From IMG/VR virus record IMGVR_UViG_3300028585_000008, positions 1 through 43,552 of that record: a stretch of 43,552 nucleotides of DNA; one strand, 5' to 3'. Under the pieces are notes generated by a model. The model was not told where the DNA came from and ran no database searches. It saw only the letters and a list, made by a program, of their open reading frames with translations. The DNA comes from a virus (taxonomy: Duplodnaviria; Caudoviricetes). Shown here piece by piece: positions 13,470 through 29,908 of the stretch. Position 1 is the stretch's first letter. Every line of letters begins with the position of its first letter. Made by a program: the position numbers and the translations under genes.

Positions 13470-13960
13470 TGGTCCTCGTCGCGCTCCCTTCCGGCCCGCT
13501 CAAGCGCGACCTGATCCAGCTTGCCTATGAGGAATGCGGGCAGGCCGGCTATGAGTTCGAGCTGACGCCGGAGGAATACGAAAGTGCGCTACGCTGGCTG
13601 AATGCGATGCTGTCGGAATGGCTCGACGCATTTGGCGTGGATCTCGGGTATGATTTCCCGGTGTCCGGCAAAGGCCATATCGACGATGCGAGCGGCGTTC
13701 CTGTCGGCACACAGCAGATCATAGGCCTACGTCTCGCGCTGCGGATCGCGCCCGCAATCGGCAAGGCGCTGAGTACCGAGAGCCGCAAGCAGATGGCGGA
13801 ATCGTGGTCTGCGTTGCGAACCAAGTACCAGACGACGCCAACGATGCAGTTCGGCCGCAATACCATGCGCGGCGCCGGCAACCGCTCCTTCTGGTCCACC
13901 CGAAGCCCATTCTTTCCTGTCGATGAGGGCTATGTCCCCGCAATTGAGGATCTTTCCTGA
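13469..13960 (+). CDS. Head completion / packaged-DNA stabilisation protein (P22 gp4-like)
   Basis: FELTPEEYESALRWLNAMLSEW...LGYDFP, LALRIAP and MRGAGN motifs. Confidence 0.85.
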   Translation: MVLVALPSGPLKRDLIQLAYEECGQAGYEFELTPEEYESALRWLNAMLSEWLDAFGVDLGYDFPVSGKGHIDDASGVPVGTQQIIGLRLALRIAPAIGKALSTESRKQMAESWSALRTKYQTTPTMQFGRNTMRGAGNRSFWSTRSPFFPVDEGYVPAIEDLS

Positions 13961-15723
13961 TGCCGGTTCGCCTTCTTCGTCCGTATCTGAGCCAAGCTAT
14001 CAATACGCTGTTCTGGGGTTCGGAGGATGCCTATGACACGTTACGCGCGACTGGTGGGGCAGATGACAACATCGACCGGGCATCCGACTATGCACCGCTG
14101 ACCCGTATTGTCACTAGCGCTGCAGCGAACACCTCGCGCAACGCCACGACTTACAAGATGAACTCGCTCGCTCCTCAGGTACTGACACTCAACACGTCTG
14201 GGTACTGGCCAACTGGCGGGGCCATTACGGTTGCCGCGCTCGGCGCGGGCAGCGTGACTGTCACCCCGGCTAGCGGCGTCACGATCAATGGCGACGTGCA
14301 GCCTGTCACTATCGCTGCGCAAAACAGCGAAGGCCGTCTGCTGAAGACCGGGCAGGACACGTGGGTCACGCTGGATGGGTTCACCGGGCAGATTGCGGCT
14401 GCGAATGCTGCGGCGGGCGGCGATCCGCTGGCTCGTGCATCCTCTAGAAACGGCAGGGCAACCCTGGCAGTGATCGGCGATAGCCGGGTCGCGCAAGGTA
14501 TTCAAATTATCGCCCAAAACGGCGGCATCAATAAGAAGAAGAAGCCGACGAGTTTCGCCGCTTGGTGGGAGTTCCTGAGTCGCGGGCGTATCTCAGCGCC
14601 ATCAGATTACAATTTCGGGGTTTCAGGTTCGCTCATTACCGCGTTGGCAGCACAGGTGCAGCAGGTGCTTGCGCTCAACCCACGGCCCACGCATTGCCTG
14701 ATCCTTTCGGGTACCAATTCCTTCGCCGCGAATGTGACGGCCGCAGATGGCTGGGCGCAATATGCGCCAAACATACAGGCACTTGTGGCGGCGGGTATCC
14801 GCCCGATCTGCCTCGCAGATTTGCCGAGGGCGATCGGAAGCTGGACGGCAAGCGCCGCTGCTCAATCAATTCAATTCAACCAGCTTCTTTTTCGCAATGC
14901 GCCCGCACTTGGCGCTCTCGTGGTGGACCCTGCATATCTTCTAGCGGATCCAGCTAATACGGCTGGCGATCCACTGACCGGCTATTATCAAAACAACGGG
15001 GTCACCGATAACGGAATCCACCCCGCGACGCTTGCCGACTTCCTGATCGGTCAAGCAGTCGATGGCGTTGTTAGCCCGCTCATCCAAGGGCCGCTACCCT
15101 TCGTGAGCAGCCGGGCAGACGTATACGACGCGACCAACAATCCTTTCGGGAATATCTTGGAAAGCGTCATGTCGGGTTCGTCTCTTATGCAAGGGACTGC
15201 CGGCACGAACACCACCAATGGCGGTACGGCATCGGGCACCGTAGCAAGTGGGTGGAACAACCGCACGCTGACAGGAACCGGGACATCCGTTGCCTCGATC
15301 GAAGCGCGGGCAGATGGGAAGCCCGGCAATAACCAGGTGCTTACCCTATCAAGCGCATCGGGCGTTTCGACGTATCGCTTTTCGTTTATCACCAACCCGC
15401 TGGCAGCGAGTTATTATGTGGCGGGCGACAAGCTGCAACTTGCGATTGATATGAGTGTTTCGGCGGCTACGGGCCTCGAAGGCCTGTACTTCTATGTGCA
15501 GGATTTCGACGGCACAAACCCACGCGGCGCCGGGCAGTGGGGCGATAATGCCATAATCGGCAGCAATTACTACCCGTACCCCACGGCATTCTCTGGCCGC
15601 GCTTTCACTGACCCGGCAATCATTGTCGCAAGTCCACTTAGTCTCATAATTCGCATGGAGATGCGGGTTAACAACGGCGGGGCTACGATCAAGATTGGCG
15701 GCGCAGAGTTGCGGCGGGTGTGA
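13960..15723 (+). CDS. Tail/virion appendage protein with SGNH/GDSL hydrolase domain
   Basis: Block I VIGDS, block II NFGVSG, block III LSGTN, block V DNGIHP; beta-rich C-terminal domain. Confidence 0.75.
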   Translation: MPVRLLRPYLSQAINTLFWGSEDAYDTLRATGGADDNIDRASDYAPLTRIVTSAAANTSRNATTYKMNSLAPQVLTLNTSGYWPTGGAITVAALGAGSVTVTPASGVTINGDVQPVTIAAQNSEGRLLKTGQDTWVTLDGFTGQIAAANAAAGGDPLARASSRNGRATLAVIGDSRVAQGIQIIAQNGGINKKKKPTSFAAWWEFLSRGRISAPSDYNFGVSGSLITALAAQVQQVLALNPRPTHCLILSGTNSFAANVTAADGWAQYAPNIQALVAAGIRPICLADLPRAIGSWTASAAAQSIQFNQLLFRNAPALGALVVDPAYLLADPANTAGDPLTGYYQNNGVTDNGIHPATLADFLIGQAVDGVVSPLIQGPLPFVSSRADVYDATNNPFGNILESVMSGSSLMQGTAGTNTTNGGTASGTVASGWNNRTLTGTGTSVASIEARADGKPGNNQVLTLSSASGVSTYRFSFITNPLAASYYVAGDKLQLAIDMSVSAATGLEGLYFYVQDFDGTNPRGAGQWGDNAIIGSNYYPYPTAFSGRAFTDPAIIVASPLSLIIRMEMRVNNGGATIKIGGAELRRV

Positions 15724-24000: not shown

Positions 24001-24801
24001 ATGGCTCGCTACAGCGACACAATCCGCGACGAGCGCACCTTGGCCCCGGTGGGCGGCGCGCAGGTATTCGTGCGCAATCAGGATGGCTCTACGCCTGTCA
24101 TTACAGCAGATGATGGAACGCCGCTGTTCGCTGCCGTTTCGGATGAATATGGCACGTTCTCGTTCAATGCGGCGCCAAACCTGTACGACCTGACAATCCG
24201 GTACAACGGTCGGGTGATCGGCGAAGAGTTCGGGGTGCCGGTTGGAGCGCCCAGCCTGCCGACCGGTTTCATCGTTGACGCGCTGGGGACCTCGCCTACG
24301 ACCGCGCCTTCGCAGCGGGCAGTCAGCGATGCCGTGACGGGCATCAACGGAACGCTAGCCGGCGTGACGACCGGGATCGCACAGGCGACTTGGAACAATG
24401 TCGGCAATTTCTCCCCCACCCTGACCCTTGGCGGTCTGGACCAAAGCCCCAGCCTCGAAAACGGGCAGATGACCGGCCACCTTGATCTCACGGCCAATCA
24501 GGCATTCATTCAGATTGCCGGCACCGCGCGCGACAAGACGGCACCGGCTGGCGGCTTCGGCGACAATGCTCGGGTCTTGCTCGAAGACCTCCCGTTCACC
24601 GCGAACGGCATCATTCCGCAGTGGTTGAAGCTTGAGCCCGGCAGCGGCTTCCCAGCCGACACGGAAGCCTATCTCGTCGGTGACACGATCGCTTTCTATC
24701 GTCCCGGTCGCGTTCCTGTGACGGCGAATGACCTTGCCGACAATTACTATATCCGCGTGACGGGAACCGTCGCCATCCTACCCCCCGAGGAAACCGCATG
24801 A
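24001..24801 (+). CDS. Putative tail fibre protein
   Basis: SDEYGTFSFNA N-terminal domain, LGTSPTTAPSQRAV fibre motif, LEDLPFTA C-terminal domain. Confidence 0.65.
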   Translation: MARYSDTIRDERTLAPVGGAQVFVRNQDGSTPVITADDGTPLFAAVSDEYGTFSFNAAPNLYDLTIRYNGRVIGEEFGVPVGAPSLPTGFIVDALGTSPTTAPSQRAVSDAVTGINGTLAGVTTGIAQATWNNVGNFSPTLTLGGLDQSPSLENGQMTGHLDLTANQAFIQIAGTARDKTAPAGGFGDNARVLLEDLPFTANGIIPQWLKLEPGSGFPADTEAYLVGDTIAFYRPGRVPVTANDLADNYYIRVTGTVAILPPEETA

Positions 24802-27059
24802 TCCGCTATCTCTTGGCGCTTCTTGCGCTCGCCCTCGCCACGCCCGCAGTCGCCGGCCCGTCGCTGGACCCGACGACGCACCCGTATATCGCGCTGGTAT
24901 CGACCAGCAAGGCGGTGTTCCGCGTCGGCGAGACCGGGAATGTGGTCATCACCCTGCGCAATGCAGGCGGGGCAACCTTCACCGGCAACGCGATCACCAC
25001 GATTTACCTCAACACGGCGATCGTCGGGCAGACCACCACGCCGGTCAGCATCGCGTCGGGCGGCTCGCCGGTCTATTCCGCGCCGTTCACGATCACCAAC
25101 GCTGGCGACCGTGGCTACCACATCGACGTGACCGTGCGGGATAGCGGCAATGCCATCGCAGACGCGGCGCCTGGCGCGATTGATGTGGAGGCATCGACCT
25201 TCTCGGCTGGATTCCCGCGCCAGTGCTGGATCGGCAAGTGGGATACCTCGATCAACGCGGCGACACTGCTCGACAGCCAGGTCGCGTGGCACTGCAACAC
25301 CGTGCAGGGCTATGCCAACTACTACCGCCCTGAACTTGCGCCGCCTCCGGGTCTCGCAACATGGCCCTCGCTCTCCAACCTGACGGTCAGCCGCGCGACG
25401 ATCACCAACGTCATCACGGCAGCGCATGCCCGCTCGATGCCGGTGCTGTTCTTCCAGGCGACGGGCGAGGCGTACAACACGTGGACCGCGCAGGCCGTGA
25501 AGCCCAAGCTCGCATGGGGGTCGTTCAACTCGGCATGCGGCAAGACGCTGGCGGGTTGCACCGAGGCGAACATGAACCGTTCGCCCGATGCTCCGGACAA
25601 TTGGACGCAATACGGCTGGCAGGCGGATCACCTCGACTTCTTCGATCCCTGCAATGCGGGCTGGCAGCAGTTCCTCATCGCCAACTCGATCCGCCCCATG
25701 CTCGCGCAGTTCCCGTTCGATGGCTGGCAGGCGGACACCGTGGGTGCGCCGTCCACGAATGGTGGCATCACCTATGACGTGAAGGGTAACCCGATCGACA
25801 CGAAGGCGTGTCTCGGCGACTTCACGACGGGTGCAGCGGCGCGGATCGGCAAGCCGGTCATCGTCAACAACGTCTCTGGCTGGGGGCTGGTCGATACCGC
25901 GTTCGCTGGTGCGCAGCCGTACCTCTACCGCGAGACGTGGAACTTCGACACGCAGTTCTACCCGGGCCTGAACGCACTGGTGGCAGGGTCCGCGTTCGGC
26001 GTGCGGCGCTACACCACGCGCCCGGTCGTCCAGCCCGCCTACATGCAGCGCAACCTTGCCGATCGCTGCACATCGGGTCAGCAAACGACGGGTTGCACGC
26101 TCAACGGCAACTCGCCCCTGCTCGCGACCGCCATGTTTGCCATCTCCGGCTCCACGCTGATGAACCACGCCGATGACGGCTGCGTGCAGACCAACGTGTT
26201 CGTGGAAGGCCAGCACCTGCCCTGCACGGCGGCGGTGATGAACAACATCCTGTCCTACAAGGCGTTCGAGGTCAGCTATCAGCACATGCTCCGCGACGCC
26301 GTTACCGACAGCACGGAAGCCTGCCTCATCACGGCCGGTGCGACCGGCAGCGGCACGGGTTCGGCGGGCCAGGTCTACGTGCTCGGCAAGAACAAGGCGG
26401 GCTTCCAGATCTGCCACCTGCTCAACCTGACGGGCGTGTCGTCAAACGACTGGACCGACCTCGAAGGCACCAAGGAGAAGCCGACGTCGCTCTCGAGCCT
26501 CACGCTCAAGATGTATTATTACGGCAATACGGTAGACCCGGCTGTCAACAAGCTGTGGTGGGCCACCCCGGACACGGCCAACGGTGCGGCCCGCACGCTC
26601 ACCTATACGACCGGCTCGGATGGCGCAGGCCGGTTCGTGACGTTCACGGTGCCGTCGCTGTCGTATTGGGACATGATCGCGCTTGAAACGAGCGCGGGCG
26701 CAAACCTGACGATCGACGGACGCCAGCCGGTGCGGGGCAACTGGTACTCGGTCGCGTCGGCGGGCATCTCGTCGGCAGGCACCTACGTCTCCGCAGCCTG
26801 TTGCAAGCGCTATGCGGGCTATCGCTCGATCCAGATCGGCGCGGCGTCCTCAACGGTCAACCTGATCTACAGCGCGGCCAAGACGGCATCGGTAACGCTG
26901 CACCTGGACGCACCAGATGGCGCGGTTCTCGGCGCCTGCTCGCTGCCGGCCGGAACCAGCCTCACGCAGGCCTGTGGGGTGCCTCCGGTCAGCGGGATGC
27001 ACGACCTGTATATCGAGTTCAATCAGCCGCTTAGCCTATTCGGCTTTTACTTTAGCTGA
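24798..27059 (+). CDS. Secreted glycoside hydrolase family 66 (dextranase-like) with C-terminal CBM6-like domain
   Basis: Signal peptide MIRYLLALLALALATPAVA; GH66 motifs AIDV...FPR, DPCNAGWQQFL, FDGWQADTVG (nucleophile Asp), VNNV, YLYRETW (acid/base Glu), PAYM, HLLNLTG, VPSLSYWDM; C-terminal LHLDAPDG...SGMHDLYIEF. Confidence 0.85.
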   Translation: MIRYLLALLALALATPAVAGPSLDPTTHPYIALVSTSKAVFRVGETGNVVITLRNAGGATFTGNAITTIYLNTAIVGQTTTPVSIASGGSPVYSAPFTITNAGDRGYHIDVTVRDSGNAIADAAPGAIDVEASTFSAGFPRQCWIGKWDTSINAATLLDSQVAWHCNTVQGYANYYRPELAPPPGLATWPSLSNLTVSRATITNVITAAHARSMPVLFFQATGEAYNTWTAQAVKPKLAWGSFNSACGKTLAGCTEANMNRSPDAPDNWTQYGWQADHLDFFDPCNAGWQQFLIANSIRPMLAQFPFDGWQADTVGAPSTNGGITYDVKGNPIDTKACLGDFTTGAAARIGKPVIVNNVSGWGLVDTAFAGAQPYLYRETWNFDTQFYPGLNALVAGSAFGVRRYTTRPVVQPAYMQRNLADRCTSGQQTTGCTLNGNSPLLATAMFAISGSTLMNHADDGCVQTNVFVEGQHLPCTAAVMNNILSYKAFEVSYQHMLRDAVTDSTEACLITAGATGSGTGSAGQVYVLGKNKAGFQICHLLNLTGVSSNDWTDLEGTKEKPTSLSSLTLKMYYYGNTVDPAVNKLWWATPDTANGAARTLTYTTGSDGAGRFVTFTVPSLSYWDMIALETSAGANLTIDGRQPVRGNWYSVASAGISSAGTYVSAACCKRYAGYRSIQIGAASSTVNLIYSAAKTASVTLHLDAPDGAVLGACSLPAGTSLTQACGVPPVSGMHDLYIEFNQPLSLFGFYFS

Positions 27060-27085
27060 CCTGTTCCACAACGAAGGAAACTGTG

Positions 27086-27196
27086 ATGATTAAACCGATG
27101 CGACGTGATGGGGAAGGTAGCGGCGGAATCCCCACCAGCCCGCCCCCGACCGGCCCGCTGAACCCGAAGCCCAAGCCCACCCCGCCGGCGAGCTGA
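27086..27196 (+). CDS. 36-aa Pro/Gly-rich peptide (MIKPMRRDGEGSGGIPTSPPPTGPLNPKPKPTPPAS), below ORF-track cutoff
   Basis: AAGGA RBS at 27074-27078; TGATG stop/start coupling to the next gene. Confidence 0.65.
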   Translation: MIKPMRRDGEGSGGIPTSPPPTGPLNPKPKPTPPAS

Positions 27197-27651
27197 TGGA
27201 TCTGTTGCCAGCCTTGTTCGGGGTCGCCTGCTGCCTGACTGTTGCGCTGGCACGTGGAGGCATGCGCCTTCTACTGTCGGTGTTGCTGGCGGAATCGTGG
27301 GCGATCTCGAATATAGGCTGGCAGTGGAACATGCTATCGTTGTTCCCGGTGCTGGATCTCGTGACCGCCTGCGTCGGGTTCGCGATGTGGCATGAGACCA
27401 AGGCCCGGTGGCTTGGCGTGTTCACGTGCATCGCTGCCAGCCAGCTTGTCTTGCATGCTATCTATGAATGGGCCGGGTTCGGTTTCCAGCACGCCTATTT
27501 GTTTCTGCTCAATGCGACCTTCGCGCTAGAGCTTTTGGTCGTATCGTGGAGGGGGATGGTGGATGCTTTCGACGCTAATGTTCGCGGCGTTCGTCGTTTT
27601 CTGGCCCGAGGTATGGGCGTTCATCCGGCGGAAGCGGTGATCCGTGGATGA
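27196..27651 (+). CDS. Multi-pass (about 5 TM) membrane protein
   Basis: Five hydrophobic segments containing polar residues (E, D, Q, H, N). Confidence 0.75.
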   Translation: MDLLPALFGVACCLTVALARGGMRLLLSVLLAESWAISNIGWQWNMLSLFPVLDLVTACVGFAMWHETKARWLGVFTCIAASQLVLHAIYEWAGFGFQHAYLFLLNATFALELLVVSWRGMVDAFDANVRGVRRFLARGMGVHPAEAVIRG

Positions 27652-28054
27652 GCTGGCGCAGATCATGTCGAAGGGCTGGACGCCCGGCGCGGTCGGCATC
27701 TGGGGCGGTCTCGCAATGGTGCTGGTCGGCTTCGGTGGCCGCGCCGTGCTGAAATGGATCAACGGTATTCCAGAGCGGCGCCGCGCTGTGAACGAAAGCC
27801 TGAGCGCCGAAGAGACCATCACCGACTCGGTATACAAAAGGATGGATGCTGAGATGACCCGGCTTGGCAAGCGCATCGAGAGTCTTGAGCAGCGTGTAGC
27901 CGAGTTAGAAGCCGAGAACCGCGGCATCATCAAGGAACGCGATAGCGCGCTGGCTGAAGTCGCGCGACTGGAAGCGGTCAACCTCGGGCGCGGCGAGTTC
28001 AAAAACGAGTTGCAGGTTCTGCAATCCGCCAAACGAATATCGGGGGCAGCATGA
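27644..28054 (+). CDS. Membrane-anchored coiled-coil protein (holin/antiholin candidate)
   Basis: One N-terminal TM plus coiled coil; immediately upstream of the endolysin. Confidence 0.6.
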   Translation: MDELAQIMSKGWTPGAVGIWGGLAMVLVGFGGRAVLKWINGIPERRRAVNESLSAEETITDSVYKRMDAEMTRLGKRIESLEQRVAELEAENRGIIKERDSALAEVARLEAVNLGRGEFKNELQVLQSAKRISGAA

Positions 28055-28641
28055 ATGCACAGTTTTTCGACCGCGCCCGCAAAGGACGCCTGCTAGGCCC
28101 GACCCTCACGCAGAGCGAGGTTGACGGGTGCACGGCTATCCTCGTTGCGCTGGAAGGCTTGCCGCTGGCTCACATCGCATACGGCCTAGCAACCGCTTAC
28201 CACGAGACGGCGCACACGATGCTGCCGATCAAGGAGAACGGTGGCCCAGCCTACTTCTTCCGCATGTACGACCCGCACGGCAACCGGCCTGATGTTGCGC
28301 GCCGGCTCGGCAACACGGAGCCCGGCGATGGCTGCCGTTATGCGGGCCGTGGCTATGTGCAGTTGACAGGCCGCGCCAACTACCAGCGCGCACAGGATGC
28401 ACTGGGGCAACCGCTGGTGAGCAATCCCGACCTCGCGATGGATCCGACCATCGCCGCTAAGGTGATGCGCCAAGGCATGAAAGCGGGATGGTTCACCGGT
28501 AAGACGTTCGCGTCATATTTGCCCGCGACCGGCGCTGCCACGATGGCGCAGTTCATGTCGGCGCGACGGATCATCAACGGGGCAGATCGCTGCGCGGATA
28601 TCGCCGCCTATGCTGCCGAGTTTCAGGACTATTTGGCATGA
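28051..28641 (+). CDS. Endolysin, GH19 (chitinase/lysozyme-like)
   Basis: LATAYHET, YAGRGYVQLTGRANY, NPDLA and ARRIING motifs. Confidence 0.9.
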   Translation: MNAQFFDRARKGRLLGPTLTQSEVDGCTAILVALEGLPLAHIAYGLATAYHETAHTMLPIKENGGPAYFFRMYDPHGNRPDVARRLGNTEPGDGCRYAGRGYVQLTGRANYQRAQDALGQPLVSNPDLAMDPTIAAKVMRQGMKAGWFTGKTFASYLPATGAATMAQFMSARRIINGADRCADIAAYAAEFQDYLA

Positions 28642-28919
28642 CAGACACCCGCCTCAACTCGCTGCTAGAGGTCGGTACGCTCGCCCTGATCGGCCTGTTC
28701 TCCGCTGTCCTCGCCGGCCTGTCGATCCGCAAGGGCGATGCCAGCGGCGCGGCTGCATGGTCCGCGATCCTGATGGCGATCATCAACACGATCAAGGAAA
28801 GCCGCTCAAGCCGCACGATTGATCGGATGGGGCAGCAGCTTGCCGCAGCTTCGCCACCTAGCGATGGGCCGGCCGGCACGCCAAGCGATCCCGTGGCTGT
28901 GAAGGAGGTAACGCCGTGA
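28638..28919 (+). CDS. Holin candidate (2 TM)
   Basis: Two hydrophobic helices and a charged C-terminal tail; between endolysin and spanins. Confidence 0.6.
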   Translation: MTDTRLNSLLEVGTLALIGLFSAVLAGLSIRKGDASGAAAWSAILMAIINTIKESRSSRTIDRMGQQLAAASPPSDGPAGTPSDPVAVKEVTP

Positions 28920-29416
28920 CAATCCTATGGCTGCTCTCAAACTGGCGCTGGCTCCTAGGCGCCATAGCAACCGCCACCCTAGCCATCCTCCTCACCACCA
29001 CCACGATCGACCGCGACCAGTGGCGCGCTACGGCTCGCAAGGCAGACGCGACGATCGCCAAGTTCACCGTCGCGCAAGATACCGCACAAAAGGCTGCACA
29101 AGCCGCCCACGACGCTCAGGAACAACGCTATAAGGATCTCGCCAATGCTGCCGACAAGGATCATGCCGCTGCGCTCGCTGATGCTGGGACTGCCACTGAT
29201 CGTTGGATCGCTGCTCACCGGGTGCCAGTCTGCCCCGCTAGTCGTGCAGCCGGCGGTTCCGTTGCCGGCACCTCGGGTAGCGGTGCCGAAAGTCCTGTCC
29301 GATCCGATCCGGCGCCCGGGATGGTTGCCGTCTCGCCCGAGTCCATCCACATCTGCACCGACAACACGCTGAGGCTTGAAGCGGCGCAGGATTGGGCGGT
29401 GGGGCTTAATCAGTAG
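28916..29416 (+). CDS. Inner-membrane spanin (Rz-like)
   Basis: N-terminal TM, Ala-rich coiled coil, last gene of the lysis cassette. Confidence 0.75.
   Translation: MTILWLLSNWRWLLGAIATATLAILLTTTTIDRDQWRATARKADATIAKFTVAQDTAQKAAQAAHDAQEQRYKDLANAADKDHAAALADAGTATDRWIAAHRVPVCPASRAAGGSVAGTSGSGAESPVRSDPAPGMVAVSPESIHICTDNTLRLEAAQDWAVGLNQ
29145..29372 (+). CDS. Outer-membrane spanin lipoprotein (Rz1-like), embedded in Rz
   Basis: +1 frame inside Rz, lipobox LLTGC (Cys codon 29223), Pro-rich mature part. Confidence 0.7.
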   Translation: MLPTRIMPLRSLMLGLPLIVGSLLTGCQSAPLVVQPAVPLPAPRVAVPKVLSDPIRRPGWLPSRPSPSTSAPTTR

Positions 29417-29621
29417 GCGGTGCGGGTAGCGGCATCCAATGCGTTGGGTTACCTCTATGATTGCAGCCCGTCATGGCGTTGTCCTGCCACCAGCCACAGT
29501 CGCTCCAAAGCGAAGAAACGATCGCCGGGTTATCGGGCCAATCACCAAGATCAGGTATAAACAGGAGTAGGTCTGTACCATCCTTCGGCGCTGTCTCAAT
29601 CGGCTGCCAAGTCAAAGTCAC
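29406..29621 (-). CDS. DUF551-family protein
   Basis: WQPIETAPKDG...PTHWMPLPAPP. Confidence 0.85.
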   Translation of the reverse strand: MTLTWQPIETAPKDGTDLLLFIPDLGDWPDNPAIVSSLWSDCGWWQDNAMTGCNHRGNPTHWMPLPAPPTD

Positions 29622-29908
29622 CTCCTCCCAGCCATAATCTGCAACTGAGCCTGATTCTGTAGCGCCGCTTCAAACCGTGCCTGATAGGGCTTGCTGTCTT
29701 CGCCCCACCCATCTTCTAGCATGGTACGAGTCAACAAAGAGGTACCGTATGCCCTGACAGTTTCCATCTCACTCGGCGTCAGAACCCTCGTATTCAGCGC
29801 CCACCACAAGTCGTCCTTTTGCTTCTGAGTGAGGCAGGCTTTCTTCGCACTCATGTAGGCAATCGCTGGTGGCGATCCTTGGTTCATTAAATCCCAGCAG
29901 AATGTCAT
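29618..29908 (-). CDS. Hypothetical protein
   Basis: Overlap-coupled member of the leftward gene array. Confidence 0.6.
   Translation of the reverse strand: MTFCWDLMNQGSPPAIAYMSAKKACLTQKQKDDLWWALNTRVLTPSEMETVRAYGTSLLTRTMLEDGWGEDSKPYQARFEAALQNQAQLQIMAGRR

Follow-up and report, generated by a model that had tools for sequence, protein, structure and literature searches.

In the staphylococcal agr system, the pro-peptide AgrD is paired with the membrane maturase AgrB. In Bacillus phages, the arbitrium pair AimP-AimR, whose receptor is an RRNPP/TPR protein, acts as a lysogeny switch. RI, the antiholin of phage T4, is SAR-anchored and periplasmic, and is not a peptide paired with a five-helix protein. 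The gene arrangement closest to that described here is HmrB-HmrC (CCNA_03325 and CCNA_03324, respectively) of the HmrABCX pathway in Caulobacter crescentus (Zappa et al., 2024; PMC11481889). As described in the available portions of that paper, hmrA encodes a divergent kinase with H286 and D578; HmrB is a 108-aa protein that carries H50 and H74 and is predicted to form a dimeric hairpin; and HmrC is a five-helix protein with no known domain. Deletions of hmrA, hmrB, and hmrC give the same hyper-adhesive, low-motility phenotype, and an AlphaFold2-multimer model of HmrA2-HmrC2 places HmrC on the membrane region of HmrA. HmrB was read by the authors as an atypical phosphotransfer protein, and its H50A and H74A variants fail to complement. 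The hmrA cluster was described as confined to the Caulobacteraceae, with a proposed role in stress sensing and phosphotransfer; those portions of the paper mention no peptide or phage role for Hmr (PMC11481889). In the literature searched, HmrB and HmrC appear in that paper, its preprint, and a meeting report (PMC12422006), as far as the accessible text of these sources goes. The same searches, mostly outside subscription papers, returned no description of a phage form or a peptide reading of the module.

The window, the whole stretch of 43,552 bases analysed here, is a complete virus with direct terminal repeats. Pfam and PHROG scans showed that it codes for a P22-like portal and coat, a terminase, an integrase, and a GH19 endolysin; the phage is temperate and P22-like. 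The best named relatives of its endolysin in genomes came from Sphingomonas and Caulobacter, and the sequencing runs containing window DNA are leaf-litter metagenomes; hence, the host is likely a bacterium of the Sphingomonadales or Caulobacterales. No variants were seen in three DNA runs from leaf litter, two of which may be the source; no RNA run was listed as containing the sequence. The tail region ends with a gene for a 753-aa protein (24798-27059, + strand) with a hydrophobic leader at the N-terminus, a domain of glycoside hydrolase 66 (GH66; E 2e-69), and a CBM6-like domain. A GH66 gene is unusual in a phage, and the same slot of the nearest phage relative, L001, is occupied by a tail-fibre-like gene instead. 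A 587-aa GDSL/SGNH esterase (13960-15723, + strand; Pfam E 1.7e-7; phrog_6102) is encoded within the P22-like head/tail block. After the GH66 stop codon (27059), the order is AAGGAA, a peptide ORF, a 151-aa ORF, a 136-aa gene, the endolysin gene, a gene for a 93-aa protein, and two spanin candidates (Table 1). Neither a sigma-70 promoter nor a + strand terminator was found in 26500-29800.

Table 1. Features of the peptide and membrane-protein pair and of the lysis genes that follow it in the window.
Feature	Coordinates	Strand	Basis
Ribosome-binding site AAGGAA	27074..27079	+	Sequence; 6 nt 5' of ATG 27086
Peptide ORF of 36 aa, Pro-rich and SGG-containing, located where HmrB would be	27086..27196	+	Sequence, locus comparison
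151-aa five-helix membrane protein with Arg-rich C-terminal tail, distantly related to HmrC-like proteins	27196..27651	+	Profile, hhalign, AlphaFold2
136-aa coiled-coil protein with a single hydrophobic segment at its N-terminus, candidate output partner	27644..28054	+	Segment prediction; L171 homologue E 8e-10
GH19 endolysin	28051..28641	+	PF00182 E 1.8e-8; phrog_181 E 1e-36
Likely holin of 93 aa	28638..28919	+	Two hydrophobic segments; no family match
Likely Rz-type inner spanin	28916..29416	+	Inferred from layout; no family match
Embedded Rz1-type lipoprotein spanin candidate	29145..29372	+	phrog_456 E 0.0059

A previous reading made from the letters of this DNA (the sequence-only reading) had picked out the first two ORFs of Table 1 as an unannotated pair, and its description of them was accurate. 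The short ORF is preceded by a ribosome-binding site (RBS), encodes a basic N-terminus and a GEGSGG stretch, and ends in a TGA that overlaps the ATG of the 151-aa ORF (TGATG). It measures 36 aa from the ATG, or 37 aa from a GTG at 27083, and the 36-aa form contains 11 Pro and no His. Neither ORF has a match in Pfam, PHROGs, or NCBIfam. Codon use backs the peptide ORF only weakly, with a synonymous codon score of 0.28 in frame versus -0.09 and 0.01 in the other + frames and at most 0.25 on the reverse strand. The strong evidence that the ORF is probably a real gene is its conservation: L001, whose membrane protein is 60% identical to that of the window, has, at the corresponding place, a Pro-rich, SGG-containing ORF of 33 aa preceded by an RBS. 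The peptide frame of L001 (2803-2897) stays open for 32 more codons upstream, from an ATG overlapping the stop of the preceding gene; therefore, a longer form of the L001 peptide is possible. A DNA pattern of the peptide had 0 matches in viral contigs. The sequence-only reading had also considered a leader-GG-core precursor. In double-glycine leader systems, GG is followed by a core and the system includes a C39 ABC exporter, whereas only 0-4 residues follow GG in several relatives (L033, L050, L182, and L185) and no C39 peptidase/ABC exporter was seen among the 24 window proteins scanned; the classical layout is not supported.

AlphaFold2 modelled the 151-aa protein as five consecutive membrane helices with short loops (residues 3-18, 22-43, 49-68, 71-93, and 95-139; pLDDT 94.7), as described for HmrC and in agreement with the about five helices counted earlier. 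The pLDDT was 75.8 with 6 sequences and 94.7 with 36 sequences including host members. The polar residues previously noted in the helices (D54, Q83xxxH87, Y101/N106, and E112) are all present. Among 40 family members, D54 is conserved in 38, W72 in 39, Q83 in 32, H87 in 38, Y101 in 35, and N106 in 32. The mean number of K+R is 2.35 in loop 1, 1.35 in loop 3, and 4.38 in the tail; loops 2 and 4, the most length-variable loops of the family, have 0.70 and 1.00. This charge bias suggests an N-out/C-in topology, which would place D54, Q83, H87, Y101, and N106 in the periplasmic half. A VIA fold search with the first model (pLDDT 76) returned generic helical bundles only (best Z 12.5, rmsd 2.0, 95 aligned). 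CREST-like hydrolases (the seven-helix HlyIII and YhhN) gave Atlas TM values of 0.57-0.67 over approximately 120 residues, below the bar for naming; the CREST-like fold has seven helices and metal-binding His motifs, and the window family has five helices and one conserved His.

Successive protein searches yielded 6, then 10, then 21 relatives of the 151-aa protein, and its top three feature clusters in the ESM Atlas are nameless and 62-70% viral. The family is carried by 5 of 160 endolysin-anchored loci (L008, which is on the contig of L001, L024, L031, L033, and L050); thus, the module is accessory, and the lysis context of these five follows from their having been fetched through the endolysin. 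A profile of phage members alone reached a chromosomal protein of Caulobacter (E 1.8e-4). With 11 phage-type proteins in the profile, 1/5, 6/351, and 51/351 genomes were matched; the wider profile matched 162/401 Sphingomonadales genomes, and 3/401 sampled Alphaproteobacteria were matched in a scan that scored only 9 candidates in each genome. The iterated profile converged on 40 hits at E<=9e-15, the next being at 0.03, among the 17,204 ORFs of the fetched loci. As an independent test, the window clade (10 sequences) was compared by hhalign with 23 chromosomal proteins and scored 94.7% (E 6.2e-8, 113 columns) with the D, W, Q, H, Y, and N columns lined up; the control, an unrelated 4-TM lysis-cassette family, scored 0.1%. 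By these profile comparisons, the 151-aa protein is a remote relative of chromosomal Caulobacterales/Sphingomonadales proteins. A chromosome-only HMM found L001 at E 1e-4 and the window protein only at E 0.075. tblastn of the membrane proteins of the window, P0009, P0010, L050, and L024 against cultured phages gave no match, and pattern scans derived from the close alignments returned L001 or the window's own contig only.

Several candidates were set aside. The profile hits in L176 and L200 are other membrane proteins and were lost on iteration. L063/L064, Pan3, and VSN-002 have Pro-rich upstream ORFs, and their membrane proteins score too poorly against the profile of the family (E 1.4 for Pan3, and L063 absent from the hits); they were left out of all counts. 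In the cultured phages Pan3 and VSN-002, the latter with Sphingopyxis as its host, the Pro-rich ORF is followed by a similar-looking membrane gene and then by a one-helix gene. Their ORFs (L168:1896-1985 in Pan3 and L169:1918-2004 in VSN-002) are unannotated, RBS-bearing, 28-29 aa long, and end in GG. An ORF of L034 that passed the Pro filter is the end of a 90-aa gene. The 4-TM family used as a control (L007, L026, L034, L038, L042, L045, L052, and L096) is unrelated to the five-helix family. It lies in the same slot before lysis genes in these 8 loci, as at L007:1041-1547 and L026:2683-3120, without such a peptide; the two members scanned match phrog_8980, and L052 has two tandem copies. In a Sphingomonas-genus locus, the gene for a 149-aa winged-helix-regulator-like protein with no Pfam match (L173:243-692, - strand) overlaps the end of the membrane gene.

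The association of the peptide with the membrane gene was assessed in 17 non-host-type loci, all chosen by the membrane profile, and the motif was sought in the last 40 residues of the upstream ORF. An RBS-bearing ORF ends -4 to +20 nt from the membrane gene in 17/17 loci. SGG occurs in 13/17 of these ORFs versus 11/731 control ORFs, and GG in 16/17 versus 146/731, many of the control ORFs probably not being genes. After a kinship collapse to 13 groups of membrane proteins, SGG was counted by hand in 10 and GG in 12. The SGG enrichment over the controls ties the peptide to the membrane gene. The sequence-only reading had asked whether homologues consistently have a short upstream ORF; they do, in abutting position, and the ORF has a Gly-Gly motif after which Pro usually comes. 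The upstream ORFs range from short and Pro-rich (window, L001, and L171) up to 66-103 aa, the latter mostly with a His-bearing helix. Among 11 SGG-type loci found in genomes through the membrane gene, 4 have an endolysin match nearby (one weak, E 0.0068) and 3 have no assigned context. In the other 4 (L177, L181, L178, and L180), the SGG pair has the gene of an OprB porin or of a dicarboxylate symporter as its neighbour, and no regulator, phage, or lysis gene was seen within up to 3.4 kb, which argues against a lysis role.

The spacing of the two genes also fits a translational leader, in which the short ORF would deliver ribosomes to the membrane gene or stall them at polyproline and so set how much product the membrane and lysis genes yield. 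The TGATG overlap, the membrane gene without a clear RBS, the PPP runs of the short versions, and the -4 to +20 nt gap shared by the 17 loci are as expected of such a leader. However, the conserved element is SGG and not the Pro run. The upstream ORFs of L033, L050, and L182 have no PPP, the distance from SGG to the stop varies from 0 to >20 codons, and most partners in the host loci described next end approximately 50-120 nt 5' of the membrane gene. A leader function alone is a weak explanation and, in our estimate, quite improbable.

In Caulobacteraceae loci, the membrane gene follows a gene for a helical protein of approximately 110 aa, and the two lie between a divergent hybrid kinase gene and a class-V aminotransferase gene, which we take to be serC. 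The kinase has a TM-CHASE8-HAMP-kinase-receiver architecture and a His-Asp spacing of 289, versus 292 in HmrA. The helical partners have H74 in 30/30 cases and H50 in 0/30. The chromosomal cluster is likely of the hmrA-hmrB-hmrC type, an assignment based on layout, kinase architecture, and H74 of HmrB rather than on comparison with the NA1000 sequence. HmrB-like genes are found in 89/91 Caulobacter-genus genomes with 1-5 matches each; more distant copies in genomes of this genus have 30-47% identity. A further 33 host loci, mostly of Sphingomonadales, bear on the host module and not on the phage peptide. An HmrB-like gene lies upstream in 30 of them and a LuxR-HTH gene upstream in 31; in 2/33, the regulator stands directly before the membrane gene with no partner gene. 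Ten of the 33 (L242, L244, L248, L249, L251, L263, L264, L266, L268, and L269) have an HmrA-like kinase match within approximately 1.5 kb. The three LuxR regulators inspected each carry a single hydrophobic segment, at the C-terminus, and a short tail; hence, they seem to need a separate sensor. The partners in L238-L270 have a variable tail after a fixed Gly that often ends in C-P-P (Sphingomonadales) or K-P (Caulobacterales), and one position of this tail seems to alternate between Cys and Lys.

The small proteins of phage and host are harder to connect than the membrane proteins. By eye, SGG-type tails resemble the HmrB tail in a register of G-x5-6-G-x2-4-K/C-P, the columns being aligned by hhalign at P 0.27 (reversed control 0.19; pairwise HMM P approximately 1e-3). 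The window peptide gave P 0.81 against the HmrB HMM and nothing against either partner profile. Since the hhalign result is not significant and the window peptide scores nothing, the window peptide is HmrB's positional counterpart only. As far as HmrB-HmrC is described in the available text, the two systems share a five-helix protein of no named family after a small partner gene, in the same gene order. They differ in that the phage partner is a 36-aa, His-free, Pro-rich peptide, whereas HmrB is a 108-aa hairpin and its family consists of helical hairpins of approximately 110 aa with H74. The phage also lacks a kinase or LuxR regulator, and its output context is a lysis cassette: no kinase, LuxR, or HmrB match was found in the window, the best E value being 0.10 in tblastn with an HmrA-like kinase and three LuxR proteins. 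Host copies of the module thus neighbour a kinase or a LuxR membrane regulator, whereas phage copies neighbour a one-helix coiled-coil or holin-like gene. The phage pair is a real, conserved, unannotated two-gene module and likely a phage variant of the HmrB/HmrC arrangement.

If HmrB is a phosphotransfer protein, the small protein may be an intracellular partner, a His phosphotransfer hairpin in hosts, of which the phage keeps a vestigial or decoy tail on the cytoplasmic face. The predicted dimeric hairpin of HmrB and the failure of H50A and H74A to complement, as given in the accessible part of PMC11481889, favour this, as do the invariant H74 of the 30 orthologues, the helix His often retained in long SGG-type partners, and partners of which none has an evident signal peptide. 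On the other hand, H50 is absent from all 30 orthologues, and the window, L001, and L171 peptides lack His or a helix and nonetheless retain the pairing and the Gly motif; the phage has no kinase, and the conserved pocket of the membrane protein would be periplasmic. Because the 36-mer is His-free and the phage kinase-free, phosphotransfer cannot apply to the window pair, although it may hold in hosts. We consider this account improbable.

Another alternative follows from the AgrD-AgrB pair, in which a small precursor-like gene likewise adjoins a gene for a small polytopic membrane protein, and the host copies here resemble it further in having a separate membrane kinase. The five-helix protein might cut or modify the peptide at its Gly motif and export it, and the mature peptide might act on a host HmrA- or LuxR-type receptor, mimicking or jamming motility/adhesion signalling and not altering lysis timing. 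The D/H/Y/N/Q constellation, kept in 32-38 of 40 members, could be catalytic. Host partners and the long phage ones have the look of a helical leader with a fixed Gly and a short variable tail (K-P/C-P-P), and HmrA has a periplasmic domain of its own. A peptide aimed at a host receptor would also suit a window in which kinase, LuxR, and HmrB matches are missing, and SGG pairs that occur away from lysis genes. Nevertheless, H87 is replaced by Arg and Q83 by Lys throughout the L031 clade, P0010 has Asp in place of H87, and the alignment of 40 members contains no conserved Ser or Cys nucleophile. The window peptide has no amphipathic leader, and two of the 33 host loci have the membrane gene and regulator but no precursor. 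Compared with agr, AgrB was not matched by any family member scanned, the window protein has no Pfam or NCBIfam match at all, the family has no conserved Cys, the window peptide lacks an AIP-like ring motif, and the hosts are Gram-negative. We regard a maturase role as somewhat unlikely.

The link of the pair to lysis is the chain of overlaps that runs through the peptide ORF, the membrane gene, the 136-aa gene, and the endolysin gene. The membrane gene had been said to overlap a holin-like gene. The overlap, of 8 nt with the GTG of the 136-aa gene, is present, but the 136-aa product has one hydrophobic segment, a coiled coil, and no holin-family match; the 93-aa two-segment protein is likely the better holin candidate. 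A homologue of the 136-aa protein (E 8e-10) follows the same module in L171, a prophage-like locus of a Sphingomonas-genus genome, and no relative was found in viral contigs. The third genes of the window and L001 have the same build and no similarity, and that of L050 is a holin (phrog_2359). The third gene of the module is not conserved, which counts against lysis as the output. Strong late-operon expression reaches any passenger gene too, and this also counts against a role in tuning lysis.

The cassette position and basic C-terminal tail of the membrane protein would suit an ordinary extra holin or antiholin with an incidental upstream ORF, and the other 4-TM family occupies that slot in 8 loci where no such peptide is present. 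However, no holin family in Pfam, PHROGs, or NCBIfam matches the 151-aa protein, its chromosomal relatives (162/401 Sphingomonadales genomes) adjoin regulators, and SGG is strongly enriched upstream of the family. This explanation is weak, and we regard it as very improbable.

The sequence-only reading had proposed a peptide plus membrane receptor or processing module, for example one that tunes lysis timing. The pairing stands and has gained a tie to the HmrABC cluster; the lysis part is weakened by the four SGG-type pairs that adjoin transporter and not lysis genes. With rather less than even confidence, we tentatively prefer to read the pair as a captured, putative peptide-plus-sensor module that may tune lysis timing. 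The Gly-Gly/Pro peptide would be the likely signal and the five-helix protein its likely membrane sensor, with D54, Q83, H87, Y101, and N106 forming a pocket in the periplasmic half. The peptide, which has no signal sequence, would be set free by the lysis of neighbouring cells and could be read by infected neighbours. The signal would then go on to the product of the adjoining gene, a one-helix coiled-coil or holin protein, and so tune lysis timing. HmrA or a LuxR membrane regulator would serve as the output partner in hosts, and a lysis-linked membrane protein in phages. In the simplest scheme, the ligand and sensor would be constant and the output (kinase, LuxR regulator, or one-helix/holin-like gene) swappable. 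Such a ligand-sensor-output arrangement is favoured because the LuxR regulators have no sensor domain and some loci hold a sensor and regulator without a partner; the HmrA-HmrC model, as presented in the available part of its source, and the substitution of H87 and Q83 in one clade point the same way.

Two phage systems invite comparison with this preferred reading. As in arbitrium, a small-peptide gene of a phage adjoins a putative receptor gene. Distinct from arbitrium, the window peptide has no signal peptide, the putative receptor is a membrane protein and not of the RRNPP/TPR type, and the pair lies in a late lysis operon and not in a lysogeny switch. T4 RI and lysis inhibition, as covered in the accessible text of PMC11413866 and PMC6832632, share with the window pair accessory products that lie beside lysis functions and could delay lysis when neighbours are sensed; RI shows no sequence or family likeness to the pair.

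A broader proposal, which we hold to be possible but doubtful, is that HmrB-type proteins are pro-peptides and not phosphotransferases. HmrB/HmrC would then be a so far unrecognised peptide signalling system across the Caulobacterales and Sphingomonadales that their phages have captured and rewired, and a peptide released by lysis would act through the five-helix receptor to set lysis time, which would amount to communication by peptides among Gram-negative phages.

An unannotated pair in a phage lysis cassette is now linked to a genetically defined Caulobacter pathway. With its 36 aa and no His, the phage partner is a natural truncation, and it suggests that the Gly-motif tail is the conserved business end of the small protein. 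The reading of HmrB as an 'atypical HPt' can thereby be put to a direct test in a model organism. Should the peptide reading be true, there would be a peptide signal family in the Alphaproteobacteria and peptide control of lysis in Gram-negative phages.
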